A stretch of 64,000 nt of DNA from Candidatus Shapirobacteria bacterium CG_4_10_14_0_8_um_filter_39_15 (GCA_002784465.1 PFLE01000004.1:8494-72493), one strand, 5' to 3'. Shown: positions 12,819 to 30,698, counted from the stretch's first letter. Numbers and translations are program-made. Notes: generated from the sequence alone by a model not told the origin.

Positions 12819-12834
12819 CGATAATAACTATAGG

Positions 12835-16092: not shown

Positions 16093-16208
16093 AGAAGATT
16101 CTTCGTTACACTCTGAATGACCTAAAGAGAAGATTCTTCACTTTGTTCAGAATGACACCGATTCGTCATCCCGAGCACATTCGACAAGCTCAGTGCGAGG
16201 GATCTTCC
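16093..16208. repeat. Hairpin repeat R, copy 4 (rearranged: two right halves then one left half)
   Basis: Two ...CTGAATGAC / ...CAGAATGAC right halves followed by GTCATCCCGAGC ... GGGATCTTCC, between the GIY-YIG gene and folD. Confidence 0.65.
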
Positions 16209-16228: not shown

Positions 16229-17092
16229 ATGGCCATTATTTTTGACGGAAAAAAATTAGCGGGAGAATTGGCAGAAAAATTAGATCGTGATGTTACTGAA
16301 TTTAAAGTTAAAACCGGAATTACTCCTAAATTGGTGAGTATTTTAGTGGGTGATGACCCAGCCTCGGTGCTTTATACCAAAATAAAACAAAAAAAGGCAG
16401 AGAGCGTGGGGATAGACTTTATTAAGAAAGAATTTCCGGAGAATGTTGAGCCGGAGGAATTGATTTCTGTTATAGAACAGCTAAACAAGGATAATTCAGT
16501 GCATGGAATTATGATTCAGCTTCCACTTCCCCGACAATCCGTAATTCGTAATTCGCAATCCGTAATCGTAGATACAATCAATCCTCAAAAAGACGTTGAT
16601 TGTTTGACTTCTGTAAATCTGGAATTGGTTAAACAAGGGAAACCTCGATTTCTTCCGGCGACCGTTCAAGCTATTTTTAAGATTATTAACCAAATACCCC
16701 GAGGTGCAGGTACGAATTCACCTTTAAGGTGTGAACGTAGTTATTGCGTAGTGGGATCGAGTGGAATGGTGGGGAAACCGCTGGCGGATTATCTGGAAAA
16801 TCAAGGATATCAGGTCAATCTTTGTGATGAATTTACCCCCGATATTTCCGTTTTTACCAAACAAGCCGATATTTTGATTTCTGCGACCGGAATTCCCAAT
16901 CTGATTAAAAAAGAAATGGTTAAGGCCGGTGTAGTTGTAATTGACGTTGGTTCGCCGGTAGGGGATGTGGATTTTGAAAATGTTAGTCAGGTGGCGTCAT
17001 TTATTACCCCTGTTCCTGGTGGTGTCGGGCCGTTAACCGTAATTTCGCTTCTTGAAAATACTCTTCAAGCATGCTATAATGCGCTTGCTTGA
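16229..17092 (+). CDS. folD: Bifunctional methylenetetrahydrofolate dehydrogenase / cyclohydrolase
   Basis: FolD motifs (VGDDPASVLYTKIK, HGIMIQLPLP, VVGSSGMVGKPLA). Confidence 0.88.
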   Translation: MAIIFDGKKLAGELAEKLDRDVTEFKVKTGITPKLVSILVGDDPASVLYTKIKQKKAESVGIDFIKKEFPENVEPEELISVIEQLNKDNSVHGIMIQLPLPRQSVIRNSQSVIVDTINPQKDVDCLTSVNLELVKQGKPRFLPATVQAIFKIINQIPRGAGTNSPLRCERSYCVVGSSGMVGKPLADYLENQGYQVNLCDEFTPDISVFTKQADILISATGIPNLIKKEMVKAGVVVIDVGSPVGDVDFENVSQVASFITPVPGGVGPLTVISLLENTLQACYNALA

Positions 17093-17290
17093 CAGAATCA
17101 ATAGCGATTCTGATTCTTGCAGCCCGTAAGGGCAGTAGAAAATTGTTAAGCCGCGTAGTTTAACGGCAAAACAACGAAAGTTATGTAGGTTCGAATCCTA
17201 TCACGGCTTAGCATTTAGCAAAAGATTACTCACACTCGATATTGCTCCCTGAAACCATAATCGAGTGGGGGAATAAGGGAGCATTTACAA

Positions 17291-18010
17291 ATGGAAATTA
17301 GTTTAAAAGAATTATTGGAAGCCGGTTGTCATTTTGGCCACCAAACCGTCCGTTGGAATCCAAAAATGAAGCCGTATATTTTTACGGCGCGCGAAGGCGT
17401 GCATGTTTTTGATTTGGTTAAAACAAAAGAAGGACTAGAGGCCGCCTGCGACATTGCCAAAACTACGGTGAGCCAAGGTGGATTGATTCTTTTTGTCGGT
17501 TCCAAAAGACAAGCCAGAGATATTGTCAGCGAGGTTTGTCAAAAAATTGGTATGCCTTATGTGACGCAAAGATGGATGGGGGGAATGATTACCAATTGGG
17601 ACCAAGTAAAAAAAAGCGTCGAAAAAATGGCCCAGTTAAAAGAAGGCCGGGAAAAAGGCGAATATAAAACCTATACTAAAAAAGAACAATTATTAATTGA
17701 CCGGCAAATTATGAAACTGGAAAAATTCTTTGGCGGCGTCGCCGGCTTGAAGGAATTGCCGCAAGCGCTTTTTGTGGTTGATGCCAAAAGGGAACTTTCC
17801 GCGGTGAAAGAAGCCAACCGCCGGGGAATTCCGGTTATTTCCATGGTTGATACTAATTCCGACCCCGATTTAATTAATTATGTCATCCCGGTTAATGACG
17901 ACGCAGTGGCGTCAATAAAATTGATTGTGGAAAAAATGGGAGAGTCTATTCAAGAGGGAATAAAATTAAACAAGGACAAGAAACCTGCAAACACTGAAAC
18001 ACTGAAATGA
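17291..18010 (+). CDS. rpsB: 30S ribosomal protein S2
   Basis: S2 N-terminus (LLEAGCHFGHQTVRWNPKM) in the rpsB-tsf order, with a C-terminal tail containing an AACACTGAA repeat. Confidence 0.92.
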   Translation: MEISLKELLEAGCHFGHQTVRWNPKMKPYIFTAREGVHVFDLVKTKEGLEAACDIAKTTVSQGGLILFVGSKRQARDIVSEVCQKIGMPYVTQRWMGGMITNWDQVKKSVEKMAQLKEGREKGEYKTYTKKEQLLIDRQIMKLEKFFGGVAGLKELPQALFVVDAKRELSAVKEANRRGIPVISMVDTNSDPDLINYVIPVNDDAVASIKLIVEKMGESIQEGIKLNKDKKPANTETLK

Positions 18011-18471
18011 TAACCGTATCCGTTGATTTAATAAAAAAATTAAGAGAAGAGACAAATGCGCCGGTGATGGAGTGTAAATCGGCGTTGCAGGAAGCCAATG
18101 GAGATATAGAAAAAGCTAAAGAAATTCTCAAGAAAAAAGGGATGGAAAGAGCCGATAAAAAAGCCAGCCGGGAAACCAAAGCTGGTCTTGTCGAATCTTA
18201 TACCCATAACAACGGCCGGGTCGGGGTGATGGTGGAGGTTTTTTGTGAAACGGATTTTGTCGCCAGAAATGAAGAGTTTAAAAAACTTTGCCACGAATTA
18301 GCCTTGCAAATCGCTTCAATGAATCCGGAATCGGTTGCCGATTTATTTGCTCAACCATGGATTCGGGATGAAAGCAAAACGATTGAACAGCTGGTAAAAG
18401 AAACAATCGGAAAACTGGGAGAAAATATTAAAGTGAACAGATTTGTGAGATTTGAGCTTGGAGTTGACTAG
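18007..18471 (+). CDS. tsf: Elongation factor Ts (short form)
   Basis: UBA-like N-terminus (LIKKLREETNAPVMECKSALQEANGDIEKAKEILKKKG) and a dimerisation core. Confidence 0.85.
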   Translation: MITVSVDLIKKLREETNAPVMECKSALQEANGDIEKAKEILKKKGMERADKKASRETKAGLVESYTHNNGRVGVMVEVFCETDFVARNEEFKKLCHELALQIASMNPESVADLFAQPWIRDESKTIEQLVKETIGKLGENIKVNRFVRFELGVD

Positions 18472-18541
18472 TCATTCTGAGCCGTAGGCGAAGAATCCAG
18501 CGAAGCGTTGCTTCTGGATCCTTCGTTGCACTCAGGATGAC
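18471..18541. repeat. Hairpin repeat R, copy 5 (compact, near-perfect)
   Basis: GTCATTCTGAGCcgtagGCGAAGAATCCAGcgaagcgttgcttCTGGATCCTTCGttgcaCTCAGGATGAC, between tsf and frr. Confidence 0.85.
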
Positions 18542-18554
18542 AGGATAAAGCATT

Positions 18555-19109
18555 ATGAACTTAACTGACATTCGTCCTAAAATGGAAAAAGCCCTGGAAA
18601 TTCTTCAGGGAGAATTATCTTCAATCCGCACCGGACGGGCTACTTCTTCACTGGTTGAAAATATTGTCTGTTCTGTATATGGAGGAGCCCAAAAATTAAA
18701 AGTGGTTGAGTTGGGAATGATTGGTGTTTTGGATGCCAGAACTATTACCATAACTCCTTGGGACAATTCCATTGTTGGAGAAATCCGTCAGGGAATTTTA
18801 GCGGCCAACGTTGGATTAATGCCGATTATTGACGGAGCGGTGATTCGGGTGGCGGTTCCGGCGTTAACTTTGGAACGGCGCCAGGAATACATAAAATTAT
18901 TATCAAGACAATTAGAAAATGGTAAAATTATGATCCGCCAGGTGAGACATGAGAAAATGGCGGATATTAAAAACAGTTTTGAGAATAAGGAAATGGGGGA
19001 AGATGAGAAATTCAGACTGGAAGAAGAATTACAGAAAGTGACTGATGAATTTGTTAATAAAATAGATGAGATAGGAAAGAAAAAAGAAGAAGAACTCCTT
19101 ACTGTATAA
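18555..19109 (+). CDS. frr: Ribosome recycling factor
   Basis: 184 aa with typical RRF sequence (MEKALEILQGELSSIRTGRA ... ). Confidence 0.88.
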   Translation: MNLTDIRPKMEKALEILQGELSSIRTGRATSSLVENIVCSVYGGAQKLKVVELGMIGVLDARTITITPWDNSIVGEIRQGILAANVGLMPIIDGAVIRVAVPALTLERRQEYIKLLSRQLENGKIMIRQVRHEKMADIKNSFENKEMGEDEKFRLEEELQKVTDEFVNKIDEIGKKKEEELLTV

Positions 19110-19221
19110 CAGTTAAACAGTAAAACGGTAAAACAGTATTCTGTTGATCGGTATGCTATCTTACTGACTTACTGACTACTGATTTACTGATATACCGTTT
19201 AACCAATTTACCGAAAAAGAC

Positions 19222-20400
19222 ATGTTATCAACCCTACTTATTTTTTTAATAATCCTTTCAATCTTGGTTCTAGTTCACGAGCTGGGTCATTTCCTGGTTG
19301 CTAAAAAAGCCGGGATCAAAGTTGAAGAATTTGGTTTTGGATTGCCGCCAAGAATTTGGGGAAAGAAAATTGGGGAGACAATATATTCCATTAATGTTTT
19401 ACCAATTGGAGGATTCGTAAAAATGTACGGGGAAGAAGGGGAGGTTGGGAAGCGGGAAGCAAGAAGCGAGAAGTTAGAAAGAGCATTCTATGCCAAATCT
19501 AAAAAAGTTAGATTAGCGGTAGTGGCGGCAGGCGTAACGATGAATTTTCTGTTGGCGGTGGGTATTTTTTCCTTTGTTTATGCCAAATTAGGGATTCCGG
19601 TAAAGACGAACCAAGTGAGAGTGGTGGAAATTGCTCCAAACTCTCCGGCATCGGTCAGCGGTTTACAATTAGACGATGTGATTATTAAAGCGGGTGAGGA
19701 AAAAATAGATGACGCCTCGAAATTTATCCAAGCTACGAAAAAATTCGCCGGCCAAAAAATGCCTTTGGAAATTGATCGGGTTAACAATCCCTGTAAGTCT
19801 AACGTAATGGGGGCGACTCCAGGTTTGGTGATTGCCTGTAAGGATGGAAACATGCTTTTTTATGTGACCCCCAGACTTAATCCACCGGCGAATGAAGGAC
19901 CGCTTGGAGTGGCAATTTCCCAAATAGAAAATAAATTTTATCCTTGGCCGGAGCAAATAGTCCGCGGTTCAATAGAAGGATTCAAGGAAGCCTTTGGTTG
20001 GATCCAGTTGATTCTTTCGGGTTTGGGAACAATGTTAAGTCAACTTTTCCACGGATCAGTGCCCAAAGATGTGGCCGGACCGATAGGGATTTTTCAAGTT
20101 ACCGGCGAAGTTTCCAAGGGAGGAATTTTATCTTTATTGCAATTTTTAGGAATTTTGTCGGTAAATTTGGCGGTTATCAACATTTTGCCCCTGCCGGCCT
20201 TAGATGGCGGACGGGTTTTGTTTATTGTAATAGAAACAATAACCAAAAGAAAAGTAAATCAGGAATTAGAAACCAAAATTCATAACATTGGAATGATAGT
20301 TTTACTCACCTTAATTCTTCTTATTACGATAAATGATATTTCCAGAATTTTAACAACTTTCGGTATCTTATCTCGTCTCCGTTCGCTTCTTCCATTATAA
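19222..20400 (+). CDS. rseP: RIP metalloprotease RseP (site-2 protease) with PDZ domain
   Basis: HExxH motif in a TM helix (VHELGHFLVAKKAG), a PDZ domain, and a C-terminal LDGG motif. Confidence 0.85.
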   Translation: MLSTLLIFLIILSILVLVHELGHFLVAKKAGIKVEEFGFGLPPRIWGKKIGETIYSINVLPIGGFVKMYGEEGEVGKREARSEKLERAFYAKSKKVRLAVVAAGVTMNFLLAVGIFSFVYAKLGIPVKTNQVRVVEIAPNSPASVSGLQLDDVIIKAGEEKIDDASKFIQATKKFAGQKMPLEIDRVNNPCKSNVMGATPGLVIACKDGNMLFYVTPRLNPPANEGPLGVAISQIENKFYPWPEQIVRGSIEGFKEAFGWIQLILSGLGTMLSQLFHGSVPKDVAGPIGIFQVTGEVSKGGILSLLQFLGILSVNLAVINILPLPALDGGRVLFIVIETITKRKVNQELETKIHNIGMIVLLTLILLITINDISRILTTFGILSRLRSLLPL

Positions 20401-20518
20401 CAAAGACAAGGAAACTACGTTCACACCTTAAAGGTGGACTAGATTCACACCTGGATATATGGTATAATCTTTTCACCTGCTACTATATTGAGATTCACAA
20501 GGATAAGGAGGAATTCAG

Positions 20519-20701
20519 ATGGGGAATCAGGGTTCTTTTACAAATAAGGCCTTGGATGAGGCAATGGACCAGTTGGTTGCCGTTTGGGTGGTGATTTTCA
20601 GCTTTGTTTGGATTTTCTATCGTAATAAATTCAATCCCTGGAATTTGGTACAGAGATTTCTACGTGATCTTTTCGATGGAATCGCGGGAATAAAAGGATA
20701 A
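20519..20701 (+). CDS. Hypothetical small membrane protein
   Basis: 60 aa with one TM helix, preceded by a TGGTATAAT -10-like box and direct repeats of TTCACACCT. Confidence 0.3.
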   Translation: MGNQGSFTNKALDEAMDQLVAVWVVIFSFVWIFYRNKFNPWNLVQRFLRDLFDGIAGIKG

Positions 20702-20761
20702 GGAGGAAGAGAATGTTGAGTGATGGAATTAGGGCGATCATTGCCAGAAAAGCACCTTCTG

Positions 20762-22025
20762 TAACAAGAAATCTCAATTTTGACACTTTTAGGAAATCTG
20801 AATTTTGAAAAACTGAAGGGCAGGTTAAACCTTCAGTCTGAATTGGTAAATGATTTTACCCATTGATTCCAAAGATACTTTATCTCCCCTCAGGTAAAGC
20901 CAAACCCGACATGCTATATATCCTGGTGGAATTTTGTATCGGATTCCAAACAAAGAGATGGTCGAGTCGGTATACACAAACCTCCTTACGGTAATGGTTA
21001 AAAGTTCTTGTAATTCTTGTTTGGATTTTGTCCGTTCCGATGGCTGGTAGACTTCGGCTGGAGTTCTTTTGTGCATCCCTAACCCCTCGGACTTGAATTC
21101 TTCATTGAACTTAATTTGCCACTCGAAGAATCTTTTGTTTAGCTCTTCAAAAAATCTGACATCAAGATTTTCCCTAACAAAATCCCTTTGTAAAAATCTC
21201 CAGAATCTCTCAATTTTCCCTTTGGTTTGGGCTTTATGGGCAAAGATTAACTGTATTCCCAACTGTTTAGCATAATCCTGGTAAGTTGCTTCACCTTTAA
21301 GGTTGGTTGACCGGTATTGTGATCCCTTGTCCTGCAAAATGGCTTTTGGTAAACCCCACTGAAAAAGACAATGAGACCAAACCCGAAAAACATTCATCTG
21401 TGTTTGTTTGGAAAACCACTTTCCTCCGAGAACGAATCGGGAGCAATCGTCAATATTCGCAATCAGATACGCCCAACAGCCAATCTCTTTAGTGTAGGAA
21501 TTAACAAGACACGGAAAGAATATCTTCCCCATAATGTCAGCTTGCCACAGATCATTGGGAGATTGAGCCACAAACCGAGTGATGGGCTTAAGTCTTTCAA
21601 TGTTTAGATGACTTAAACCTTCTTCGACAAAAATCTGGTTTACTCTTCTTTGGGTAATTTGTTTTATGCCGGTCAGCTCGAGTACTTTTCTGGCTGATCT
21701 GAAAGATTTCTCTCTTTTCCTGGAAATAATCTCTGATCTTTGCCCGAGAGTTATTTTACAGAAATTAGAATGCCTGCCGTCCCTTAATGCTCCCAGGCCA
21801 TCTTTAACTGATTTTTTCAGATAGTTGTAAATTGTTTGCCGGCTACAGCTAAGCTCTTTTGCGGCTTGGGTTGGGGTAATTTTTCTTTTTAAAACCCTAC
21901 CAATTGTTAGTTTTTTGTTTTCAAGTTCTAACTTCTTCACTTTTCTCACCTCCAATCATTTGGAAATGAGTTTAGCGTAAAAGTTGAGATTTCGTTTATA
22001 TGTAAAAGTTTAGATTTCTCTTAAC
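20762..22025. mobile_element. IS481-like insertion sequence (imperfect terminal inverted repeats around GAGATTTCTYG)
   Basis: Contains a single 376-aa HTH plus rve (DDE) transposase gene. The left end AAGAAATCTCAATTTTGACACTTTT matches, as an inverted repeat, the right end TAAAAGTTGAGATTTCG / TAAAAGTTTAGATTTCTC. Confidence 0.5.
20825..21955 (-). CDS. DDE transposase (integrase core / rve domain), IS481-family-like
   Basis: N-terminal HTH (TPTQAAKELSCSRQTIYNYLKK) and an rve core (WQADIMGK ... AHKAQTKGKIERFWRFLQRDF). Confidence 0.75.
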   Translation of the reverse strand: MEVRKVKKLELENKKLTIGRVLKRKITPTQAAKELSCSRQTIYNYLKKSVKDGLGALRDGRHSNFCKITLGQRSEIISRKREKSFRSARKVLELTGIKQITQRRVNQIFVEEGLSHLNIERLKPITRFVAQSPNDLWQADIMGKIFFPCLVNSYTKEIGCWAYLIANIDDCSRFVLGGKWFSKQTQMNVFRVWSHCLFQWGLPKAILQDKGSQYRSTNLKGEATYQDYAKQLGIQLIFAHKAQTKGKIERFWRFLQRDFVRENLDVRFFEELNKRFFEWQIKFNEEFKSEGLGMHKRTPAEVYQPSERTKSKQELQELLTITVRRFVYTDSTISLFGIRYKIPPGYIACRVWLYLRGDKVSLESMGKIIYQFRLKV

Positions 22026-22038
22026 ACCTTCACGGGAA

Positions 22039-22515
22039 TTGACAGAGGAACAGGTTATCGCGATGATTGAGAAAACGCCAGGGTGGAGGATTGCCCGGCC
22101 AGGCAGGTTCACTATTCGTGAACGTGCAATAAAAATATATCCTCCTGGTTCAACCGGGTGGGTTGTTGAGAAATACTTGGTTGTTGGTGAACCGGTACGA
22201 TTGGTTTGGAAATGGAATCAGGAAATCGAGGAATTGATTGGCGAAAGACGCTTAACATTGATTCCCATGATAAACTGGGATTCCTGGGTGTGTGAGATGT
22301 GGGTAGATTCTAAGCCCGTTCTTGAAGCCAACGGAATCAAACCCAAGATTTTGATTCTTGAAGAGCAAGTCGTAGAATTGCCAATTCCTGCTTATATTTC
22401 GCGGGGGGAGACAACCTGTTGCCTGGTTTCCGAGATCAATCAGTTTGTTGATCCTCTTGACCAACAACTACAGGCAATACGGGGGTTAATCGCTGCAAAT
22501 GTATCGAGAGGATAG
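22039..22515 (+). CDS. Hypothetical protein (IS-adjacent)
   Basis: 158 aa with no recognisable motif; likely a non-ATG start. Confidence 0.3.
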   Translation: MTEEQVIAMIEKTPGWRIARPGRFTIRERAIKIYPPGSTGWVVEKYLVVGEPVRLVWKWNQEIEELIGERRLTLIPMINWDSWVCEMWVDSKPVLEANGIKPKILILEEQVVELPIPAYISRGETTCCLVSEINQFVDPLDQQLQAIRGLIAANVSRG

Positions 22516-22645
22516 ATTAAGGCAACAAAACACCTGGAGATAGGGTAAAAATACAAAGTTATCCAATTCTCCAGGTTTCTTTTTGTACAATTAGGTGTTG
22601 CAAATTATACCCCGATCGTGGTAATAATAGTAATAGATAAAGAAA

Positions 22646-23386
22646 ATGGCAAAGAATTTAAGAATTAGAGACTTTGTTCTTTTAGGATTAGCGATCGCTG
22701 GTGATACTTTTAGTGAATTTACTCAATCGCCTTCAATAAAACTTGGAAAAATCAAAGGTACTCTTCCTCCTAATTATGGTGTTACCAATTTCACCTCGGC
22801 AGTTTCTAAAATGCTCAAAACCGGTCAGATTGAAAAAATTATTAAAAAAGGTGAACCATATTTAAGATTGACTAATAATGGCAAAAAAATTTTAATCAGG
22901 GATTTCCCGTTGTTTAAATTGAGAAATCAGAAATGGAATGGTAAATGGAGGTTGGTATTTTATGATATTCCGGAAAAAATGAGAACGAAAAGGGAGTATT
23001 TACAGACAAAATTAAAAGAATTGGGTTTTGGCATGATTCAGGAAAGCGTTTATTTAAGTCCTTTTGATCTGGCGGAAGATTTAGAAGAATTTATTATCAG
23101 TCAAGGATTGCAGGATTATGTTTTTATTCACGTTGGAAAACAAATCATAGCAGGTGAAATAAAATCGTTGGTTGAAAAGCTTTGGAAAATCGAGAGCTTG
23201 GACAAGAGATACGAAGAAATTTTACTAAAGATTAAATCCAGGAAGGAACAAAACGAGATTTTCAAAGAATACGAAGAAATTTTAAAAGACGATCCCTGTT
23301 TACCTCTGGATTTGTTACCGAATAACTGGGTAGGGGAAAGAGTGAGGAAAGAAATGGGGTTACTTTTTAAACCACGATCGGGGTAA
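22646..23386 (+). CDS. PaaX-like winged-helix regulator, paralog 2
   Basis: Has a wHTH, the core KWNGKWRLVFYDIPEKMRTKREYLQTKLKELGFGMIQESVYLSPFD, and the C-terminal motif DDPCLPLDLLPNNWVGE. It is bracketed by 25-bp direct repeats at 22610-22634 and 23372-23396. Confidence 0.7.
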   Translation: MAKNLRIRDFVLLGLAIAGDTFSEFTQSPSIKLGKIKGTLPPNYGVTNFTSAVSKMLKTGQIEKIIKKGEPYLRLTNNGKKILIRDFPLFKLRNQKWNGKWRLVFYDIPEKMRTKREYLQTKLKELGFGMIQESVYLSPFDLAEDLEEFIISQGLQDYVFIHVGKQIIAGEIKSLVEKLWKIESLDKRYEEILLKIKSRKEQNEIFKEYEEILKDDPCLPLDLLPNNWVGERVRKEMGLLFKPRSG

Positions 23387-23435
23387 AATTAGTAATATTG
23401 TCTTTTTAAAAAATTAATTGGTATAATTATTATTA

Positions 23436-24662
23436 ATGCGTTATTCACAACTTTTTGGTAAAACTTTAAGGCAAGTTCCTAAAGAAGCGGAAGCAATTTC
23501 TCACCAATTACTAACCCGCGGCGGATTTATTGATAGGCAACTTACCGCCGGAGTTTATTCACTTCTTCCTCTCGGCTGGCGGGTCTATAAGAAAATTGAA
23601 AATATTATTCGGGAGGAAATGAATGCTATTGGCGGTCAAGAATTATTTTTGCCGGCGTTACAACCAAAAGAACTTTGGCTGCGTTCTAATCGCTGGGACA
23701 ATATGGATCCGCCTTTGTTTAAGTTTAAAGACCGACACGAAAAGGAATTAACAATTGCGCCTACCCACGAAGAAGTGATTACCGATTTGGCCAGTCGGAT
23801 GATTAATTCCTATCGCGATTTGCCATTGGCAATTTACCAAATTCAAAATAAATTTCGTAATGAAATGCGGGTTAATGGCGGGCTATTGCGAGTTCGGGAA
23901 TTTATGATGAAGGATTTGTACTCTTTCCACAGTTCGGTTGAAGATCTTGATCAATATTATCTGGAAGTGATTGACGCTTACAAAAATATTTTCAGCCGTT
24001 GCGGATTTCATGCCAAAATTGTCGAGTCCAGTTCGGGAACAATCGGGGGAGATCAATCAAACGAATTTCAAATGATTTGCGAAACCGGCGAGGATACGAT
24101 CGTTTGCTGCAAAACCTGCGATTGGGCGGCCAATGTGGAAAAAAGCAATCCGGAGCGGTGTCCGAAATGCGGTTCGGATATCGAAAGAGTTCATTCAATT
24201 GAAAACGGTCACGCCTTTAAATTGGGAACAAAATATGCGGAAAGTATGGGCGCATTTTTTACCGACGAATCAGGACACAGAAAACCTTTAATAATGGGTT
24301 GTTACGGAATCGGTTTGGGACGATTAATGGCGACGGTGGTCGAAGAATATCACGACGAAAAAGGAATTCTTTGGCCTCAAAATATTGCTCCGTATTTAGT
24401 TGATTTGGTTGATTTGGGTTTGAAAGAACGCGGGGGAGAAATCTACAATACTTTAACTCGTTTTGGCGCTGAAGTATTATGGGATGATCGGGATGTCACT
24501 GCCGGTAATAAATTTGCCGATGCTGATTTAATCGGTTTACCAATCAGATTGGTAGTTTCGGAAAAATCCGGAGACTTGGTCGAAATAAAAAGACGCGATG
24601 AACAACAAACAGAACTCCTTGATATTGAACAAATAGTTACCCGCCTGCAAGCGATGAAATGA
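23436..24662 (+). CDS. proS: Prolyl-tRNA synthetase (compact form without the INS editing domain)
   Basis: Class II aaRS motifs and a ProRS N-terminus (MRYSQLFGKTLRQVPKEAEAISHQLL); the C-terminal anticodon-binding domain is present. Confidence 0.85.
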   Translation: MRYSQLFGKTLRQVPKEAEAISHQLLTRGGFIDRQLTAGVYSLLPLGWRVYKKIENIIREEMNAIGGQELFLPALQPKELWLRSNRWDNMDPPLFKFKDRHEKELTIAPTHEEVITDLASRMINSYRDLPLAIYQIQNKFRNEMRVNGGLLRVREFMMKDLYSFHSSVEDLDQYYLEVIDAYKNIFSRCGFHAKIVESSSGTIGGDQSNEFQMICETGEDTIVCCKTCDWAANVEKSNPERCPKCGSDIERVHSIENGHAFKLGTKYAESMGAFFTDESGHRKPLIMGCYGIGLGRLMATVVEEYHDEKGILWPQNIAPYLVDLVDLGLKERGGEIYNTLTRFGAEVLWDDRDVTAGNKFADADLIGLPIRLVVSEKSGDLVEIKRRDEQQTELLDIEQIVTRLQAMK

Positions 24663-25675
24663 AAAAGAAAAAGATTGTGGTTATCGGCGGCGGATCCGGA
24701 ACTTACCAGGTCCTTCTGGGTTTAAAAAAATTTCCTTTAGATCTAACGGCGGTGGTCACGATGTCCGATTCCGGCGGGTCTTCGGGACGATTAAGGAAAG
24801 ATTTGGGAATTCTGCCTCCGGGTGATGTCCGGCGGGCGCTTTTGGCTTTGTCTAACCTTCATATTAAGAAAAACACTTTAAAAAAACTTTTTGATTTTCG
24901 TTTTAATAACGGCGAATTGGCCGGTCATTCCATTGGTAATTTATTACTGGCCGCTTTAACGCAAATTACCGGCCGGCCGGATTTAGCCATTTCCGAAGCC
25001 CAAAAAATCTTGGAAGTTTCCGGGCAAGTTTTGCCGGTGACGGTTGACAACACGGATTTGGTTGCCCGATTAGAGGACGGAACCATTATTAGGGGCGAAC
25101 ACGATATTGACGTTCGGGAGATCAAGCCGGATATTCCGATTGCCGAAGTTTATCTTTCACCAAATGCAAAAGTTTTTCCCGGGGCGCAAAAGGCAATCTG
25201 CCAAGCAGACTTAATTGTTTTAGGTCCGGGGGATTTATACACTTCAATCATTCCCAATTTATTGGTAACGGGTGTTAGCGAAGCAATTAACAAGTCAAAA
25301 TCAAAACTGGTTTATGTGTGTAATTTAATGACTAAGCACGGAGAGACAGATAATTTTACCACTACTGATTTTGTCCGCGAAATCAAAAAATATTTAAAAT
25401 TAGACAAAAAAATTCTGGATTATTTGGTTGTCAATGAGCAAATAAAATTGCCGGTGTCGGTTTCTTCCTGGTATAAAAAATATCATTCGGTACCGGTTAA
25501 AATCGAGCCGGATAATTTGGAAGGAACAAAATTAATTAAAGGTTCTTTTGTCCAGCCGGGAAAATTAATCAGACATGACCCGGCCAAGTTAGCCAAGACG
25601 ATTATGAAAATAATAAAAGATGAACAGTTAATCAGCAAAACAGGGAAAGTATATCGGAGAATGGAAGATCAGTAA
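24659..25675 (+). CDS. YvcK / CofD-family (UPF0052) gluconeogenesis factor-like protein
   Basis: N-terminal GGGSGT motif (VVIGGGSGTYQVL ... MSDSGGSSGRLR) typical of the CofD/YvcK family. Confidence 0.75.
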   Translation: MKKKKIVVIGGGSGTYQVLLGLKKFPLDLTAVVTMSDSGGSSGRLRKDLGILPPGDVRRALLALSNLHIKKNTLKKLFDFRFNNGELAGHSIGNLLLAALTQITGRPDLAISEAQKILEVSGQVLPVTVDNTDLVARLEDGTIIRGEHDIDVREIKPDIPIAEVYLSPNAKVFPGAQKAICQADLIVLGPGDLYTSIIPNLLVTGVSEAINKSKSKLVYVCNLMTKHGETDNFTTTDFVREIKKYLKLDKKILDYLVVNEQIKLPVSVSSWYKKYHSVPVKIEPDNLEGTKLIKGSFVQPGKLIRHDPAKLAKTIMKIIKDEQLISKTGKVYRRMEDQ

Positions 25676-25724
25676 ACAGGAAACTAATCTCTAATCTCTG
25701 TTCTCTTATCCAGATTATACTGAT

Positions 25725-26591
25725 TTGCTGATATTCTATTCTATGGTAAAACTAATTGTTACCCATATAAATCCTGATCTAGATGCCTTATCCAGTATTT
25801 GGTTGATTAAGCGTTTTTTTCCGACCTGGGAAAAGGCTGATATGCAATTTGTTCCGGCGGGAAAAACTTTTCGGGGTGCACCTCCGGATGACGATCAAGA
25901 AATTATTCATGTTGATACCGGTTTTGGTAAATACGACCATCACCAAACCGCTAAATTTACCTGCGCGGCGGAATTGGTTTACAAGGAAGTAAAAAAAAGA
26001 CAAAAATTATCGGAAGACAACCAAAAAGCTTTGGAAAGATTTATCAAAGTTAATGTGGAATTGGATTCTGGTCGGGATATTAGTTGGGAAGATGCTCAAA
26101 ATGATCGATACGAATTTATGGTAAGTAATTTTATGGCTAGCATTAAGTTTTCCCAAGAAAAAAAAGATGAAGAAAAAGTCAATTATTTTTTACCGATTAT
26201 TGATGCTATTTTTCAAACAATAAAAAATAAAATTAAGGCAGAAAACGAAATTAAAAAAGGAAAAGAATTTGAAACTCTCTGGGGAAAGGGGATTGGAATG
26301 GAAACCGGTTTGGATGATGTTTTAACAGTTGGAGAGAAAATGGGCTATTCTTTGGTTGTCAAAAAAAATCCCAAGGATGGTCATGTCAGAATTTTTGGGC
26401 GTTGGGACAAAAAAATAGATTTAACCAAAGCTTTTGGAAAATTTCAGAAAAAAGATCCCATGGCCTCTTGGTATCTTCACCCAAGTAAGTGTTTGCTTTT
26501 AAACGGTTCCCGTTCAGATCCGGACATGGTTCCCACAAAACTTTCTTTGGAAGAAATTATTAAAATTGTGGGAAAGAAAAAACCGTCCTAA
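25725..26591 (+). CDS. DHH-family phosphoesterase
   Basis: DHH motifs (HINPDLDAL; VDTGFGKYDHHQ). Confidence 0.65.
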   Translation: MLIFYSMVKLIVTHINPDLDALSSIWLIKRFFPTWEKADMQFVPAGKTFRGAPPDDDQEIIHVDTGFGKYDHHQTAKFTCAAELVYKEVKKRQKLSEDNQKALERFIKVNVELDSGRDISWEDAQNDRYEFMVSNFMASIKFSQEKKDEEKVNYFLPIIDAIFQTIKNKIKAENEIKKGKEFETLWGKGIGMETGLDDVLTVGEKMGYSLVVKKNPKDGHVRIFGRWDKKIDLTKAFGKFQKKDPMASWYLHPSKCLLLNGSRSDPDMVPTKLSLEEIIKIVGKKKPS

Positions 26592-26619
26592 CGGTGGTTT
26601 GTTAGAACGGTTTAGTAGA

Positions 26620-27021
26620 TCAATCAAAACATCTTGAATTAAGATCATTGGTTGAACCGGTAATTCTCTGGAGCATCGGCGGATAGAACTGCTGACCAAC
26701 CGAAAAGGCCAGAGCTCGGAGCTGAAATTCCAGAGTGGTTGCCCAGTCCTGCTCGTCATGATCAAGGGTGAACAGTTCTGTGCTGATGGCATCTATCTTT
26801 CTGGCAACATTGCACAGATAGCGCCTTTTGTTTTCGGTTAATACGCGGGCATAATTCCGAATGTCCGCAGTAGCTCTTACAATTGAATCCCAGTTGTTAG
26901 GATCCATCTGGATAACAACATCCTCTTCAATGACTTTGAATCGGAATTCAATCAAACCAACGGCCGGGATTTGGTTCGGGGCTGCAATCGCTGCCCTCAA
27001 CAGACTCGGATTTACGTTCAT
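26620..27021 (-). CDS. Hypothetical protein (opposite strand to neighbours; visibly higher GC)
   Basis: 133 aa ORF with no recognisable motif. Its codon usage is richer in GCC/GGC than its neighbours. Confidence 0.35.
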   Translation of the reverse strand: MNVNPSLLRAAIAAPNQIPAVGLIEFRFKVIEEDVVIQMDPNNWDSIVRATADIRNYARVLTENKRRYLCNVARKIDAISTELFTLDHDEQDWATTLEFQLRALAFSVGQQFYPPMLQRITGSTNDLNSRCFD

Positions 27022-27132
27022 CTCCTGCCTCCTTTTGTTGATAAGTTAATCTTGCAACCGAATTCCTTGATTCTGGGTGATATTATAAGCCTCTGAACTT
27101 CCAAAAGCAAACCAAAATTTGTATGATATAAT

Positions 27133-27489
27133 ATGTCTATGGAAAACTGTGTTTTTTGTAAAATTATTGCGGGAGAGATGCCGGCAAAATTTGTTTATCA
27201 GGATGATTTGATAGTTGCTTTTCCAGATATCAAACCTTCGGCGCCGGTGCACATTTTAATTGTTCCCAAGAAACATACGGAATCTTTGAAAACCACCAGT
27301 GAGGAAGATCAGGTTTTGCTGGGAAAAATGTTGTTAATCGCCGGAAAGATTGCTAAAGACCTGGGAATTTCTGAATCCGGATTCAAAGTTGTAATCAATA
27401 ATGGACCGGACGCCGGACAATTAGTAAAACATTTGCATTTTCATTTACTTGGCGGATGGGCCAAGAACGAAGGGCGGGTGACTATTTAA
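27133..27489 (+). CDS. HIT-family (histidine triad) protein
   Basis: HxHxHxx motif (HLHFHLLGG). Confidence 0.85.
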   Translation: MSMENCVFCKIIAGEMPAKFVYQDDLIVAFPDIKPSAPVHILIVPKKHTESLKTTSEEDQVLLGKMLLIAGKIAKDLGISESGFKVVINNGPDAGQLVKHLHFHLLGGWAKNEGRVTI

Positions 27490-27492
27490 TTT

Positions 27493-27681
27493 ATGGCAAC
27501 CATTGTTAAGAAAAAACCAGGTCAAACCGACGATCAGTTAATTGCCCAATTTAAGAAAAAAGTTCTCTATGAAGAAATTATCGAAGAAGTGAGGGAAAGA
27601 GAATTCTATACCAAACCTTCCCGAAAAAGATATGAACGGGAAAGGGCGAATAAAAACAGAAAACCCTCTAGGTACTATTGA
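27493..27681 (+). CDS. rpsU: 30S ribosomal protein S21
   Basis: 62 aa basic protein (KPGQTDDQLIAQFKKKV ... RKRYERERANKNRKPS). Confidence 0.8.
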   Translation: MATIVKKKPGQTDDQLIAQFKKKVLYEEIIEEVREREFYTKPSRKRYERERANKNRKPSRYY

Positions 27682-27778
27682 TGGGTTAGGTTATTGGGTT
27701 AGGGTGAGGCAGTTGGTATGGTCATAAGGTAAGGTTAATAGGAATTTTCCACCTTACCATAACCATTTCCCAAACTAA

Positions 27779-28261
27779 TTGCTTAACCCTTACCTTGGCC
27801 AGAATAAATACAATATGCTACAAGAGCAACTCAAAACTGATCTAATAATTGCTATGAAAGCGAAAGACCCGGAAAGAGTTTCGACTTTACGGTTTTTGCT
27901 TTCGGCGATAAATAATAAACAGATTGAATTACAGCGGGATTTAACGGATGAGGATGTGGTAGGGGTAATTGGTCACCAAATTAAAGAAAGGAAAGAATCA
28001 ATTGAAGCGTTTACCGCCGGTAACCGTCAGGACTTGGTTGATAAAGAAAAACACGAAATGGAAATTTTGTCCGGCTATATGCCGGAACAGATGCCGGAAA
28101 GGGAACTGGAACAAGTTGTCAACCAAGTAATTAAAGAAACAGGAGCATCAAGCCCAGCTGATTTTGGAAAAGTAATGGGAATGGTGATGGCAAGAGTTAA
28201 GGGAAAAGCGGATGGGAATAAAGTAGGAGGAATTGTTAAGAAACAACTAAAGTCATTCTGA
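27779..28261 (+). CDS. GatB/YqeY domain protein
   Basis: YqeY-like sequence (LKTDLIIAMKAKDPERVSTLRFLLSAI ...). The stop codon lies inside a hairpin repeat. Confidence 0.7.
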   Translation: MLNPYLGQNKYNMLQEQLKTDLIIAMKAKDPERVSTLRFLLSAINNKQIELQRDLTDEDVVGVIGHQIKERKESIEAFTAGNRQDLVDKEKHEMEILSGYMPEQMPERELEQVVNQVIKETGASSPADFGKVMGMVMARVKGKADGNKVGGIVKKQLKSF

Positions 28262-28330
28262 GCCAGCAGGCGAAGAATCTAGCGAAGCGTGCGGCCTGCG
28301 GCCTAGATCCTTCACTTTATTCAGGATGAC
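28252..28330. repeat. Hairpin repeat R, copy 6
   Basis: GTCATTCTGAGCcagcagGCGAAGAATCTAG ... CCTAGATCCTTC ... TCAGGATGAC. It supplies the stop codon of the GatB/YqeY gene. Confidence 0.85.
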
Positions 28331-28353
28331 ATTTTTCTTATTGACAACTCTAC

Positions 28354-28725
28354 ATGATAAGCGTTTTAATATCTTCAGAGTCCCGATACCGGATTGATCG
28401 CCAGAAAATTAAAAAAGGTATTGAGGATTTCCTCGGGCAGGTAGGAATGAATGAAGTTGAAGTCAGTGTGGCAGTGGTCGGCGGCCGGAAAATCCGGTCT
28501 CTGAATAAAACCTACCGTCAGCTTGACGAGTCAACCGATGTTCTTTCCTTTCCTCAAGAAGGTTCCCGAGACCCGGATGGAATTTTAAGATTGGGTGATA
28601 TTCTGGTTTGTTATCCGCAAGCAATTGAACAGGCGGTTGAGGAAGATAAAATGGTGGATGAGAAGATTAATGAATTAGTGGAGCATGGATTAAGACATTT
28701 GTTGGGAATTCACCACCCTGAATAA
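28354..28725 (+). CDS. ybeY: rRNA maturation endoribonuclease YbeY
   Basis: C-terminal HxxxHxxGxxH-type motif (VEHGLRHLLGIHH). Confidence 0.7.
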   Translation: MISVLISSESRYRIDRQKIKKGIEDFLGQVGMNEVEVSVAVVGGRKIRSLNKTYRQLDESTDVLSFPQEGSRDPDGILRLGDILVCYPQAIEQAVEEDKMVDEKINELVEHGLRHLLGIHHPE

Positions 28726-28737
28726 TTTGAAATCCCT

Positions 28738-28798
28738 GTCATCCTGAGCAAAGCGAAGGATCTTCTCAAGAAGATTCCTCGACTGCGTCTCGGAATGA
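28738..28798. repeat. Hairpin repeat R, copy 7
   Basis: GTCATCCTGAGCaaaGCGAAGGATCTTCTcaaGAAGATTCCTCGactgcgtCTCGGAATGAC, between ybeY and dnaX. Confidence 0.8.
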
Positions 28799-28811
28799 CT
28801 ATTTTAAAAAC

Positions 28812-30344
28812 ATGTCAGATTTTACTGCCAAATACCGGCCACAAACAAATTCCGAATTGGATTTAACTTTTGCCCGCGAGCAGATCTCGAAGATCTTTTC
28901 TTCGGGAAAGGTTCCCCATGCTTTGTTATTTTCTGGCCCTCGTGGTATTGGCAAGACATCGGCGGCTCGGATTGTGGCGAAAACAGTGAATTGCCTGGAA
29001 CCGACAAAAGAAGGGGAACCCTGCAATAAATGCGATCAGTGTGTTTCGATTACCAACGGAAGTAACCTTGATATATTGGAAATTGACGCGGCCTCAAACA
29101 GGGGAATTGACGACATCCGCGATTTGAAAGAAAAGATTAAACTCGCCCCGACCAGAGCGAAATATAAAGTTTACATAATTGATGAGGTTCACATGTTAAC
29201 GACTGAAGCCTTTAATGCCTTGTTAAAAACTTTGGAGGAACCGCCGGAACACGCTATTTTTATTTTATGCACGACGGCGCCGGAAAAATTACCGGAAACG
29301 ATTACCTCCCGTTGTCTGCAAATAAATTTCAAAAGAGCCAGCGAAAAAGAAATTATTGAAAAATTGGAGAAAATTTCCAAGGAGGAAAAAATTGAAATCG
29401 AAAAAGAAGCTTTGGCTAAAATCGCAAAAGCAGTCAACGGCAGTTTCCGCGACGCGACGAAGATTTTGGAGCAGCTTTCTTTTGCCAAAGAGAAAATTAC
29501 GGTCGATTTCGTGGCGGAAATTTTAGGTCAGATAACCGGTTTGGGACCGGAAAAATTATTAGTTTTATTGGTGGATAAAGATACGGTTGACGGAATTAAA
29601 GAAATTGACCGGATTGTCGAAAGCGGGGGTAATCTGCGTGTTTATACTGAACAGCTTTTGGAATTATTGCGATTGGGAATGTTGGCAAAACTTGGTGTCA
29701 CAGATATCACTGAGATACAACAGATTACACTGAGTATTGAAGATTATAAAAGACTAATTGAGATTTTTGCTAAAGCCGGTTTGGAGTTGAAAGACGCAGT
29801 TATACCACAACTTCCATTAGAGATGGCGGTTGTTGAGTGGTGTGTAGAAGGACAAGAGAAGCGAGATGTTGGAAGCAAGAAGCGGGAAGAAGAGGACGAG
29901 AATCAGAAAAAAAAGGAACCAGAATCTCGCATCTCACCTCTCGCATCTCACCTCTCAACCGTATCATCATCCTCCAGTATTTCCTTAGAATCGATTCAAA
30001 ACAAATGGCCGGAGGTGCTGAAAGGGGTTAAGCCGAAAAATCACTCGGTTGAGGCGTTGCTGCGGGCGACCAGACCCTTGGAAGTCAAAAATAATTTTTT
30101 GATTCTGGAGGTTTTTTACAAATTTCATAAGGATAAATTGGAAAGCGAAAAATGCCGGCAGATTTTGGAAGATACAATCAATGAAGTTTACGGAGAACCA
30201 ATTCAAATCAGATGTGTTTTGGGAGAACGGAAACCTGCTAACACTGAATCACTGAAGGAAACTGAAACACTGAAAGATGCCGAAACACAGAATGATGATA
30301 TTATTAAATCGGCCGAAGAAATTTTTAGTGTTTCGGTAGAGTAA
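28812..30344 (+). CDS. dnaX: DNA polymerase III subunit gamma/tau
   Basis: AAA+ P-loop (GPRGIGKTSAARIVAK), a zinc module (CNKCDQC), and the clamp-loader SRC region. The linker carries in-frame tandem repeats. Confidence 0.9.
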   Translation: MSDFTAKYRPQTNSELDLTFAREQISKIFSSGKVPHALLFSGPRGIGKTSAARIVAKTVNCLEPTKEGEPCNKCDQCVSITNGSNLDILEIDAASNRGIDDIRDLKEKIKLAPTRAKYKVYIIDEVHMLTTEAFNALLKTLEEPPEHAIFILCTTAPEKLPETITSRCLQINFKRASEKEIIEKLEKISKEEKIEIEKEALAKIAKAVNGSFRDATKILEQLSFAKEKITVDFVAEILGQITGLGPEKLLVLLVDKDTVDGIKEIDRIVESGGNLRVYTEQLLELLRLGMLAKLGVTDITEIQQITLSIEDYKRLIEIFAKAGLELKDAVIPQLPLEMAVVEWCVEGQEKRDVGSKKREEEDENQKKKEPESRISPLASHLSTVSSSSSISLESIQNKWPEVLKGVKPKNHSVEALLRATRPLEVKNNFLILEVFYKFHKDKLESEKCRQILEDTINEVYGEPIQIRCVLGERKPANTESLKETETLKDAETQNDDIIKSAEEIFSVSVE

Positions 30345-30642: not shown

Positions 30643-30698
30643 AAAGAAGAACAGAAAATCTCGCATCTCGTTTCCCGCATCACGCACCCCTTGTTCAT

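Follow-up and report, generated by a model that had tools for sequence, protein, structure and literature searches.

A short octamer-derived sequence common to rpsB and dnaX and its setting among 7–8-nt tandem arrays in a Shapirobacteria-like lineage

The repeat sequences in rpsB and dnaX of this Shapirobacteria-like Patescibacteria lineage, which has a small genome, are probably both members of a genome-wide population of 7–8-nt tandem arrays (long simple sequence repeats), found in the relatives as well. The octamer segments of the two genes are most likely of common origin at the nucleotide level, as judged from their alignment, and the shared sequence is probably not a special element that jumps in frame. 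In the window, i.e., the whole 64-kb stretch of DNA analyzed, there were 13 arrays of period 7, 9 of period 8 and 9 of periods 14–16, compared to 1.7, 2.9, and 0.9, respectively, in 10 dinucleotide shuffles, and the array density in relatives was 3.2 per 10 kb. Several unit families coexist (GRGANGY, ATTGYTAT, AATTTTS, AATYCGN, AACACTGA, and TTACTGA), and ATTGYTAT, AATTTTS, and AATYCGN arrays were each present at more than one locus. Long simple sequence repeats have units of 5–11 nt (Mrazek et al., 2007, as summarized in PMC4679880); the arrays found here are head-to-tail, have units in this range, exceed the expectation from composition and reuse their units across loci. Most of them seem to occupy short spacers directly 5′ of start codons, with a genic subset that would persist only where the protein is unconstrained. 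Arrays were also found within loops or linkers of the housekeeping proteins encoded by topA, folD, rseP, dnaX, cysS, ssb, and yebC. The features of rpsB, dnaX, and their surroundings are listed in Table 1.

Table 1. Genes and tandem arrays at the rpsB/tsf junction and in the dnaX region (window coordinates)
Feature	Position	Strand	Basis
rpsB, ribosomal protein S2, 239 aa	17291..18010	+	TIGR01011, 292 bits, residues 3–224
Octamer array, AAACACTG-type, 3.5 units, degenerate first unit AAACCTGC	17980..18007	+	TRF period 8 ×3.5
tsf, short EF-Ts, 154 aa	18007..18471	+	TIGR00116
dnaX, DNA polymerase III gamma/tau, 510 aa	28812..30344	+	TIGR02397, 366 bits
Sense GRGANGY heptamer array GAGAAGC GAGATGT TGGAAGC AAGAAGC GGGAAGA, DnaX domain III–IV linker	29856..29890	+	Repeat search and family scan
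Antisense GRGANGY-family array; + strand reads TCTCGCATCTCACC ×2.3, encodes SRISPLASHLS	29922..29957	-	TRF period 14 (2×7), 29925–29956, 100% matches
Octamer-derived module, last DnaX linker (aa 474–496)	30230..30300	+	TRF period 8 ×4.2 (30240–30275), period 18 ×2.9
Intergenic antisense heptamer array ATCTCGC ATCTCGT TTCCCGC ATCACGC, between YbaB-like and MTAP genes	30656..30686	-	TRF period 7 ×4.1 (30658–30686); family scan

The octamer array of rpsB encodes KPANTETLK and ends at the overlap of the rpsB stop with the tsf start (ATGA), the TGA of rpsB overlapping the tsf ATG at 18007. An earlier note on this DNA had read rpsB 17978–18010 as AAGAAACCTGCAAACACTGAAACACTGAAATGA, encoding KKPANTETLK-stop, and dnaX from 30229 as GGAAACCTGCTAACACTGAATCACTGAAGGAAACTGAAACACTGAAAG, encoding KPANTESLKETETLKDAETQ; both sequences were confirmed and the domain models agree with its gene identities. 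Its view that these segments are insertions did not hold up in ortholog alignments. The folded domain of S2 stops near residue 224–228, and the tail that follows (residues 229–239) is hypervariable in length and sequence among 22 orthologs, that of the window being among the shortest. Both DnaX linkers are likewise hypervariable in length and sequence among 18 orthologs, the window's again among the shortest, and the nearest dnaX ortholog recovered is 59–61% identical. The rpsB ortholog of the relative L001, which has 81.5% nucleotide identity to the window in the core, carries an equivalent tail at the equivalent position, with 6.2 octamer units compared to 3.5 in the window and with both synonymous and non-synonymous codon differences (AAA/AAG, CCT/CCC, GCA/GAT). 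Because the same tail is found at the same position with codon differences, the rpsB tail has descended vertically since the split between the window and L001, and hence no recent insertion; the signature of vertical descent, which the earlier note had named as contrary to its reading, is thereby seen in part, i.e., for rpsB. In L003 and L004 the tail at the rpsB/tsf junction is of an unrelated heptamer type. That tail types are scattered patchily over the four relatives, a comparison of four sequences only, is explained here by presumed recombination. No variation in unit number was observed among near-identical strains (three S2 and five DnaX strain variants), and slippage thus appears to be slow here.

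The relation between the two octamer segments was first noted as a 28-bp match with 2 mismatches, and this match is real and non-random. The best local alignment of rpsB and dnaX within the window spans 27 nt with 2 mismatches, and the pattern AAACCTGCWAACACTGAAWCACTGAA has exactly two matches in the 64 kb, at 17981–18006 (rpsB) and 30231–30256 (dnaX), while it is absent from 100 dinucleotide shuffles even with 3 mismatches allowed. The dnaX module is built from three degenerate 18-nt higher-order units (79% matches), AACACTGAATCACTGAAG, GAAACTGAAACACTGAAA, and GATGCCGAAACACAGAAT, such a unit equaling two octamers plus 2 nt. The rpsB tail of L001 has this irregular 18-nt unit in common with the window's dnaX and matches it at 40/46 nt without gaps, the similarity extending further with small gaps, so that the homologous segment exceeds 28 nt once the L001 tail is included. 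Both the rpsB and the dnaX segment have a degenerate non-repeat 5′ flank AARCCYG, a break of +2 nt (GAR) and a third unit that is degenerate. Because the L001 tail matches dnaX to this extent and with the same irregular unit, a single octamer-derived module of ~50–65 nt (NTE[T/S]LK-ETETLK-...) probably passed in one copying event between the rpsB/tsf junction and the dnaX linker, two sites on one strand that are separated by 12 kb. Such copying likely took place by non-allelic gene conversion or by replication template switching seeded by repeat homology, and would have preceded a putative 33-nt slippage deletion that shortened the rpsB tail of the window; replication slippage would later alter the unit number over species-level time. 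It may also be that a third, donor locus is located elsewhere in the genome, of which ~82 kb was examined.

An independent origin of the two segments, in which the slippage-prone octamer AACACTGA expanded separately at each of the two sites, is considered unlikely. Their resemblance would then follow from the common unit and the common need to avoid an in-frame TGA, and the reading frame is no independent coincidence, as all three frames of (AACACTGA)n give one cyclic peptide. Arrays of (AACACTGA)n do occur in genomes of many unrelated phyla, those of Bacteroidales, Planctomycetota, Anaerolineae, and Nanoarchaeota among them, and a single genome often has them at numerous loci; in addition, the different heptamer arrays at one folD site in sister lineages show that arrays are born repeatedly. 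What separate expansion accounts for less readily is the 9-nt flank AAACCTGC[A/T], which is common to both copies and lies outside the perfect array (chance roughly 1e-3 by our own estimate), the common +2-nt GAR junction, although one substitution would remove the stop, and the similarly degenerate third unit CC(N)GAAAYACWGAA in both.

Why the common segments are in frame may be understood from the unit itself. Read forward, (AACACTGA)n has a stop codon in all three frames (NTETLKH followed by a stop) and (GAAGTGA)n reads EVRSEK followed by a stop, and the coding copies break exactly where these arrays would give stops: the rpsB copy terminates the open reading frame and that of dnaX has an interruption every 18 nt. 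Given the stops in (AACACTGA)n, in-frame survival is taken to reflect selection, i.e., the copies would be in frame since purifying selection retains only frame-preserving, stop-free derivatives. Only truncated or broken copies survive in genes, and the mechanism for spreading sequences in frame that had been proposed earlier is therefore unnecessary.

Rickettsia palindromic elements are palindromic and cause net insertions. They are MITE-like, ~150 bp long, belong to defined families with dozens of copies and are found in frame in unrelated genes (PMC10969869), and the repeat DNA described here resembles them in that it keeps the frame of the unrelated essential or metabolic genes that harbor it and occupies sites which fold and function tolerate. 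A dedicated small mobile element of this kind, inserting in frame into essential genes, could also account for a nucleotide sequence common to unrelated essential genes and for repeat-family sequence in many housekeeping genes of the window, which in addition carries a Y1/HUH transposase gene flanked by palindromes (7777–8502) and a glyA in which, compared to L003, 42 nt of GC-rich sequence are inserted in frame. Such an element is nevertheless very improbable. Unlike the Rickettsia elements the module measures ~27–65 nt, has neither a palindrome nor structure, occurs at two loci and makes no net insertion relative to orthologs. It has no terminal inverted repeats, no flanking direct repeat was seen by eye at the dnaX junctions, and predicted RNA structure was absent (z -0.6 for the dnaX module, z -1.2 for the heptamer region). 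The two loci are the only ones in ~82 kb of genome, none was found in the syntenic regions of relatives or in viral contigs, and the sole metagenome match is an orthologous rpsB. Furthermore, since the forward unit stops in all frames, a true insertion would usually truncate its host gene. Sharing at the nucleotide level between unrelated genes, as originally noted, thus stands for the octamer segments, with their likely common origin, and for the array families in many housekeeping genes, while the description as insertions does not.

The same setting applies to the heptamers of dnaX. The AF2 model of DnaX is folded at 1–347, 389–473, and 493–506, and the only long segments with pLDDT <50 are 348–388 and 474–492; the repeat regions (aa 348–383 and 473–496) both coincide with these two predicted disordered linkers. 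The in-frame TCTCGCATCTCACC tandem reported earlier is present without mismatches, in a stop-free orientation and inside the segment 348–388, and the reported recurrence of TCTCGCATCTC in a non-coding stretch is an exact 11-mer at 30659–30669, in the spacer that separates the YbaB-like and MTAP genes, where the array lies 12 nt 5′ of the MTAP start. With one mismatch allowed TCTCGCATCTC has 5 matches compared to 0.5 expected. It does not form a class of its own but is the "first" heptamer class read from the opposite strand: TCTCGCATCTCACC is the antisense form of the GRGANGY family found in topA, rseP, cysS, ssb, and yebC, for which the family scan with two consecutive units gave 28 matches at ~13 loci, compared to 1.8 expected.

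Heptamer arrays in rseP, cysS, ssb, and folD stand in for variable segments of equal length within ~3 aa, members of the GRGANGY family occupy equal-length variable loops of rseP, cysS, ssb, and yebC, and in folD two sister lineages have different heptamer arrays at one site where the closest relative has ordinary sequence. Together with the irregular rpsB/dnaX module these observations are the reason for considering whether unconstrained segments of essential genes are actively overwritten with 7–8-nt array sequence, in a family-specific manner and without a change in length. This wider reading is doubtful. The overwriting could proceed by template switching or by gene conversion, with dispersed arrays as the source, and might be linked to a property of the polymerase or to the resident Y1/HUH transposase. 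If this reading is true, linkers and loops in reduced genomes would evolve by a route that has not been described before; the rpsB/dnaX case is in itself a variant of known simple-sequence-repeat biology.

It is tempting to ask whether the common sequence is retained for a function, either as an mRNA or DNA site for a repeat-recognizing regulator, of the kind proposed for TAACTGA arrays 5′ of start codons, or as a short linear peptide motif KPANTE[T/S]LK in S2 and DnaX. The tsf ATG lies directly 3′ of the octamer array and no Shine-Dalgarno motif was found upstream of it, the same being true of each of the 8 genes that have an array no more than 40 nt 5′ of the start, and a translational role has been proposed for similar arrays (PMC4679880). 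The repeat part of the rpsB tail is identical between the window and L001 at 15/15 nt, whereas the adjoining codons differ at 4/15 nt, and the arrays are invariant among strain variants. Shine-Dalgarno motifs are, however, rare genome-wide (10 of the 56 array-free genes), so that their absence from all 8 is not significant. The dnaX copy lies ~60–130 nt 5′ of the start of the YbaB-like gene (30358), which has its own strong AAGGAGGTGA site, the unrelated heptamer tail takes the place of the octamer at the rpsB/tsf junction in L003 and L004, and the peptide is absent from more distant S2 and DnaX orthologs. A retained function is accordingly quite unlikely. A phase-variable contingency locus was rejected, there being no length variation among the five DnaX and three S2 strain variants and the host genes being essential housekeeping genes.

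The array population is best compared with direct repeats of the heptamer TAACTGA in Beggiatoaceae, cyanobacteria, and Bacteroidetes (MacGregor, 2015, PMC4679880). These lie 5′ of start codons; in the forward orientation they overlap nothing but the ends of open reading frames, and in the reverse they are found at protein peripheries. The present arrays share with these, and with long simple sequence repeats in general, units of 7–8 nt, 2–8 copies per array and recurrence of a unit at many loci. As with TAACTGA, they are mostly located in spacers 5′ of start codons, and the genes downstream often have no canonical ribosome-binding site. Units that contain stops in all frames when read forward overlap an upstream reading frame only at its end (cf. 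rpsB/tsf), and reverse or stop-free orientations are found at the protein periphery. They differ in that several unit families coexist instead of one dominant heptamer, that arrays also extend to loops and linkers inside essential housekeeping proteins, and that one module is common to two genes with its irregularities intact. Full-text literature searches found no description of such arrays for Patescibacteria.

Borg repeat units are reportedly divisible by 3 nt and their arrays long, and heptanucleotide repeats of cyanobacteria (STRR) were reportedly described by Mazel and co-workers in 1990. As outlined by Schoelmerich et al. (bioRxiv 10.1101/2022.05.18.492195), Borg tandem repeats give amino-acid repeats in intrinsically disordered regions, those in reading frames being described as perfect and of independent origin. 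According to this outline, they are similar to the present arrays in being both intergenic and within reading frames, in frame, in disordered regions, fast-evolving, different between close relatives and A-rich. Disorder was predicted here for the DnaX linkers (pLDDT <50), and the domain model does not extend to the S2 tail. The primary units here are 7–8 nt in short degenerate arrays, with unit families at many loci and in bacterial core genes, unlike those of Borgs; the only unit divisible by 3 is the degenerate 18-nt one rather than a near-perfect one. The STRR repeats and the G-rich heptamers of Xanthomonas and Nostoc (PMC4692102) are likewise dispersed tandem heptamers with few motif families per genome, but are mainly intergenic as described, and overwriting of coding loops is not emphasized for them.

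Two minor observations were made. A programmed frameshift in dnaX was considered at the A-run 29907–29915, where an in-frame A AAA AAG is present, and was rejected: the shifted frames have no early stop, the -1 frame remaining open for 40 codons and the +1 frame for 24 codons beyond the run, and the fold around the run did not reach significance (z -1.2). At 63455–63470 TRF found a small (GGGATTG)n array, which adds to the resemblance to the STRR and G-rich heptamers.

The repeats in rpsB and dnaX are short-unit tandem arrays located in disordered or hypervariable protein segments. Re-reading of the window sequence confirmed the positions and sequence strings that the earlier note had given for them, and the identities of the host genes were verified by NCBIfam. 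The octamer unit AACACTGA is found at the end of rpsB, whose TGA stop overlaps the tsf ATG (18007), and again within dnaX. A 26-nt degenerate pattern matched these two loci only in the window, and had no match in shuffled sequences even at 3 mismatches. Exact TCTCGCATCTC occurs three times in the window, at 29925, 29939, and 30659. Near-identical proteins recur in several independent assemblies of Candidatus Shapirobacteria type (Patescibacteria/Microgenomates), and the repeat features are therefore not assembly artefacts. A 50-aa query of concatenated module peptides, which also missed the known copies, gave one candidate and no hits in a database of 5.8 billion proteins.

Locations of repeats and associated features (window coordinates unless a relative's contig, L001 or L003, is named)
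Feature	Position	Location or remark	Tool
rpsB	17291-18010	C-terminus reads ...KLNKDKKPANTETLK, then stop	
Period-8 array	17980-18007	last 28 nt before rpsB end	TRF
dnaX	28812-30344	octamer segment GAAACCTGCTAACACTGAATCACTGAAGGAAACTGAAACACTGAAAGATGCCGAAACACAGAAT at 30230-30294	
TCTCGCATCTCACC x2.3	29925-29956	in dnaX	TRF
(AATYCGT)x5	16536-16570	folD	
(AATTTYC)x3.6	L001 290-322	folD	
Ordinary sequence, no array	L003 folD (1265-2143)	closest relative, same site	
Spacer arrays (examples)	4545-4586, 5677-5755, 19104-19195, 25684-25710, 30658-30686, 31500-31583, 35211-35324	5' of start codons	
(ATTGYTAT)n octamer arrays	4545-4586, 5677-5755, 31500-31583, 53688-53726	intergenic	
(TTACTGA)n array	19160-19195	5' of rseP	
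Y1/HUH transposase gene (PF01797)	7777-8502 (-)	TGACAAGGTTAGACCTTGTCA copies on both sides	
Palindrome TGACAAGGTTAGACCTTGTCA	7767-7788, 8290-8311, 8517-8538, 10280-10301, 12833-12854, 34415-34436	also at other intergenic sites	
~40-nt family (...AGATCCTTCG..CAGGATGACA)	907-949, 16093-16156, 18500-18542, 28289-28331, 28737-28763, 56143-56185	intergenic, both orientations	

The S2 protein P0003, encoded on the relatives' contigs L001 and L002, shares 86% amino acid and 81.5% nucleotide identity with the S2 core of the window and ends in KKPDNTETLKETETLKPEILK, encoded by AAGCCCGATAACACTGAAACACTGAAAGAGACTGAAACACTGAAACCAGAAATACTGAAATGA, i.e., 6.2 octamer units. The L001 rpsB tail matches the dnaX segment of the window at 40 of 46 nt ungapped, and the match extends with small gaps. 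In both, the leading unit is degenerate (AA(A/G)CC(T/C)G, absent from perfect (AACACTGA)n), 2 extra nt (GAR) follow the first 'NTETLK' and give rise to an 18-nt higher-order unit, and the third unit has decayed in a similar way. As perfect (AACACTGA)n would lack all three irregularities, they provide good evidence for a single origin of one module of about 50-65 nt, now present at two loci. An independent origin of the two arrays would be in line with a scan of genome collections, in which (AACACTGA)n recurred among the matches listed as the unit of arrays from unrelated phyla, frequently with numerous loci in one genome; given the irregularities that the copies have in common, it is improbable. 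The octamer-derived module was probably copied between rpsB and dnaX, the inferred route being ectopic recombination or template switching, and slippage probably trimmed it afterward. The rpsB tail of the window is a shortened form in which 33 nt are missing between two ACTGAAA repeats, which matches the expected product of replication slippage. The window and L001 have the same non-repeat codons 5' of the array apart from changes of both synonymous and non-synonymous kind (AAA/AAG, CCT/CCC, GCA/GAT, GAC/AAT), and the tail is not recent. For rpsB these codon-level differences from L001 follow the pattern of vertical descent, contrary to the view of the earlier note that the tail was an insertion that had spread. 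The observation in that note holds, i.e., the match between rpsB and dnaX is real, and of its interpretation a shared module of probable single origin can be kept, but not insertion by a mechanism of in-frame spreading.

The tree of the rpsB core is ((window, L003), L001), L004, and the tail types, octamer in the window and L001 and heptamer in the relatives' contigs L003 and L004, are discordant with it. This discordance is limited to approximately 17910-18000. Along folD-rpsB-tsf (16745-18260) the nearest relative of the window shifts from L004 in the folD 3' part (79%) to L003 in the rpsB core (88%) and then to L001 and L003 equally in the tsf 5' part (83 and 82%). Because the neighborhood is a recombination mosaic, the incongruent tails were not taken as a sign of independent or repeated insertion and this reading was rejected; homologous recombination between lineages would suffice for the patchy tails. 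The folD-rpsB spacer also contains a weak Rfam tRNA match (17149-17209 (+), 61 nt, 39 bits) with no ARAGORN call, possibly a tRNA-like element that has been truncated or has degenerated.

Coding DNA is generally expected to be free of arrays whose unit length is not a multiple of three. (AACACTGA)n translates as NTETLKH-stop in every one of the three forward frames, and perfect (AACACTGA)n is therefore limited to about 2.6 units inside a gene. The rpsB ORF ends within its array, and in dnaX and L001 rpsB the array is broken each 18 nt, exactly where H-stop would come next. P0002 and P0004, the S2 proteins of L003 and L004, have a different tail, ...EVRSEK..., from (GAAGTGA)n, which translates as EVRSEK-stop, and these tails also depart from the unit at the stop. 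(GGGAAGC)n and TCTCGCATCTCACC have no stops in the orientation used. In essential genes, only stop-free or 'broken' in-frame copies would survive purifying selection, and since in-frame survival can be explained in this way, no frame-aware mechanism of the kind previously proposed is needed. That arrays persist in housekeeping genes in these forms lets one see clearly how selection filters a mutational process.

Among 22 orthologs S2 is conserved up to ...GE(S/A)(I/V)xEG, and the tails beyond comprise 0 to ~35 residues with no conserved sequence. Both repeat regions of DnaX fall within blocks of variable length and sequence among 18 orthologs, and the window versions are among the shortest. 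An AlphaFold2 model from the same 18-ortholog alignment (mean pLDDT 76) has long segments below 50 only at 348-388, where the heptamer/TCTCGCATCTCACC region lies (aa 348-383), and at 474-492, the place of the octamer module (aa 473-496). Heptamer-array loops in rseP, cysS, and ssb of the window have about the same length (within ~3 aa) as in the two syntenic relatives (contigs L125 and L126), whose sequence there is unrelated, and the arrays are therefore replacements in unconstrained segments and not net insertions. The ortholog alignments and loop lengths likewise indicate that what had been called insertions in rpsB and dnaX replaced variable segments with no net gain. At one folD site, directly between QLPLP and P.KDVDC, the window and L001 carry different heptamer arrays, with the length of the site kept to within 1 aa. 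This suggests that array formation recurs at a hotspot or that a replacement process preserves length, and may hint at a wider process in which array families overwrite variable segments. A 34-nt near-perfect heptamer array in yebC (62829-62862; period 14, 95% matches) encodes GSGEVGSEKWEE in what we take, after E. coli YebC, to be the conserved-length loop GxGE...EE; YebC is not lengthened by it, as the protein has 243 aa and the family model 245 positions.

The dnaX linker showed several further features. An A8 run (29907-29915) includes an in-frame A AAA AAG (29909-29915), at the site of the frameshift in E. coli dnaX. An E. coli-like frameshift producing gamma is unsupported, with 40 codons in the -1 frame and 24 codons in the +1 frame before a stop, and no significant 3' structure. 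Pairing of sense and antisense heptamer arrays as a linker hairpin was rejected, as the fold was no better than shuffles (z -1.2). The domain III-IV linkers of the two syntenic relatives (L125 11049-11167 and L126 11061-11185) are 68-80% identical in DNA, at or above the gene average, with blastn blocks of 85-89% over 66 and 36 nt; their small hairpins keep their positions, differ in sequence, and do not fold significantly. This element is missing from the window, which has heptamer arrays there instead. The dnaX linkers, in the window and in its relatives alike, matched no Rfam family, and the idea that the relatives' linkers are in-frame copies of the REP-like D4/D6 family of the window was rejected for want of a DNA match.

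The window is rich in such arrays. Compared with the means of 10 dinucleotide shuffles, TRF detected 13 vs. 1.7 arrays of period 7, 9 vs. 2.9 of period 8, and 9 vs. 0.9 of period 14-16. Many occupy short spacers directly 5' of start codons, and others lie within housekeeping genes (topA, folD, rseP, dnaX, cysS, ssb, yebC, and a pseudouridine synthase); their units group into families that each recur at several loci. A streamlined uncultivated bacterium here reshapes unconstrained parts of its essential proteins (the S2 tail, DnaX linkers, and surface loops) with the repeat families of its intergenic spacers. The degenerate two-unit pattern GRGANGYGRGANGY has 28 matches vs. 1.8 expected, at about 13 loci. 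Its minus-orientation matches are limited to dnaX 29922-29956 and the spacer at 30656-30676, and TCTCGCATCTC/TCTCGCATCTCACC is therefore no new class but the antisense orientation of the heptamer class found in other genes. L125 and L126 also carry 3.2 short-unit arrays per 10 kb (TRF), which makes array richness a trait of the clade. Shine-Dalgarno sites precede 0 of 8 genes with an upstream array and 10 of 56 without; with so few of these sites in total the difference lacks significance, and the suggestion that arrays stand in for them was rejected. The intergenic (ATTGYTAT)n arrays are paired in opposite orientation directly upstream of topA and of ORF 31584, forming long imperfect hairpins (z -4.4 and -6.3), and the array at 53688 is complementary to that at 31548.

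Features of a mobile element were not found in the octamer module: inverted termini are absent, no flanking direct repeats were seen by eye, and no structure is predicted (z -0.6). Outside its two loci in the window no copy was present, either in another ~18 kb from this genome or across the 21 kb that is syntenic in two relatives. A pattern spanning all three module versions matched only the orthologous rpsB contig in a metagenome scan, and viral contigs gave no module matches. Array length is unchanged in strain variants, and the arrays are therefore not contingency loci. The Y1/HUH gene with its TGACAAGGTTAGACCTTGTCA palindromes looks like a REP/RAYT-type arrangement, and a second Y1-type gene lies just past the window end (14522-15196 of L127, a locus reaching beyond it). 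The ~40-nt family, which flanks tsf/frr, ybeY/dnaX, and other genes, is REP-like and separate from the tandem arrays. Compared with L003, its closest relative, the window has in the C-terminal region of glyA a GC-rich, hairpin-capable in-frame insertion of 42 nt (15579-15620; 14 residues), which is single-copy in the window and whose fold is not significant (z -1.2).

Borg repeat units are multiples of three nucleotides. Borg tandem repeats, described as perfect amino acid repeats, create disordered protein segments (bioRxiv 10.1101/2022.05.18.492195), and the repeats in window genes similarly fall in disordered segments. The classic example of repeats lying in frame within essential genes is the Rickettsia palindromic elements (PMC10969869), and the window module lacks those of their defining features that were tested. 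The closest match among known classes is long simple sequence repeats with units of 5-11 nt, especially the TAACTGA heptamer arrays of Beggiatoaceae, cyanobacteria, and Bacteroidetes, which lie mostly directly 5' of start codons; forward arrays overlap ORF ends only, owing to stops in all frames, and reverse arrays are found at protein peripheries, the mechanism of dispersal being unknown (PMC4679880). The (TTACTGA)n array of the window is one base off this heptamer and has an ACTGA core in common with the AACACTGA octamer. A search of the full-text literature found no short-unit arrays of this sort in Patescibacteria. The presence of identical short-unit arrays at multiple loci has lacked an explanation ever since the cyanobacterial STRR and TAACTGA repeats were first reported, and the rpsB/dnaX module, which is shared together with its irregularities, offers a concrete example involving two loci. 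In CPR genomes, short-unit arrays can also mislead when genes are called, orthologs aligned, or frameshift sites sought. Among the matches listed, MAGs of unrelated Bacteroidales, Planctomycetota, Anaerolineae, and Nanoarchaeota have long perfect (AAACACTG)n arrays at many loci (including at least loci L012, L013, L022, L029, L035, L038, L062, and L074). These arrays often adjoin other octamer arrays (AACCATGT, GGTACCCG, AAACGCAA) and small GC hairpins, and look like a widespread, seemingly undescribed phenomenon.
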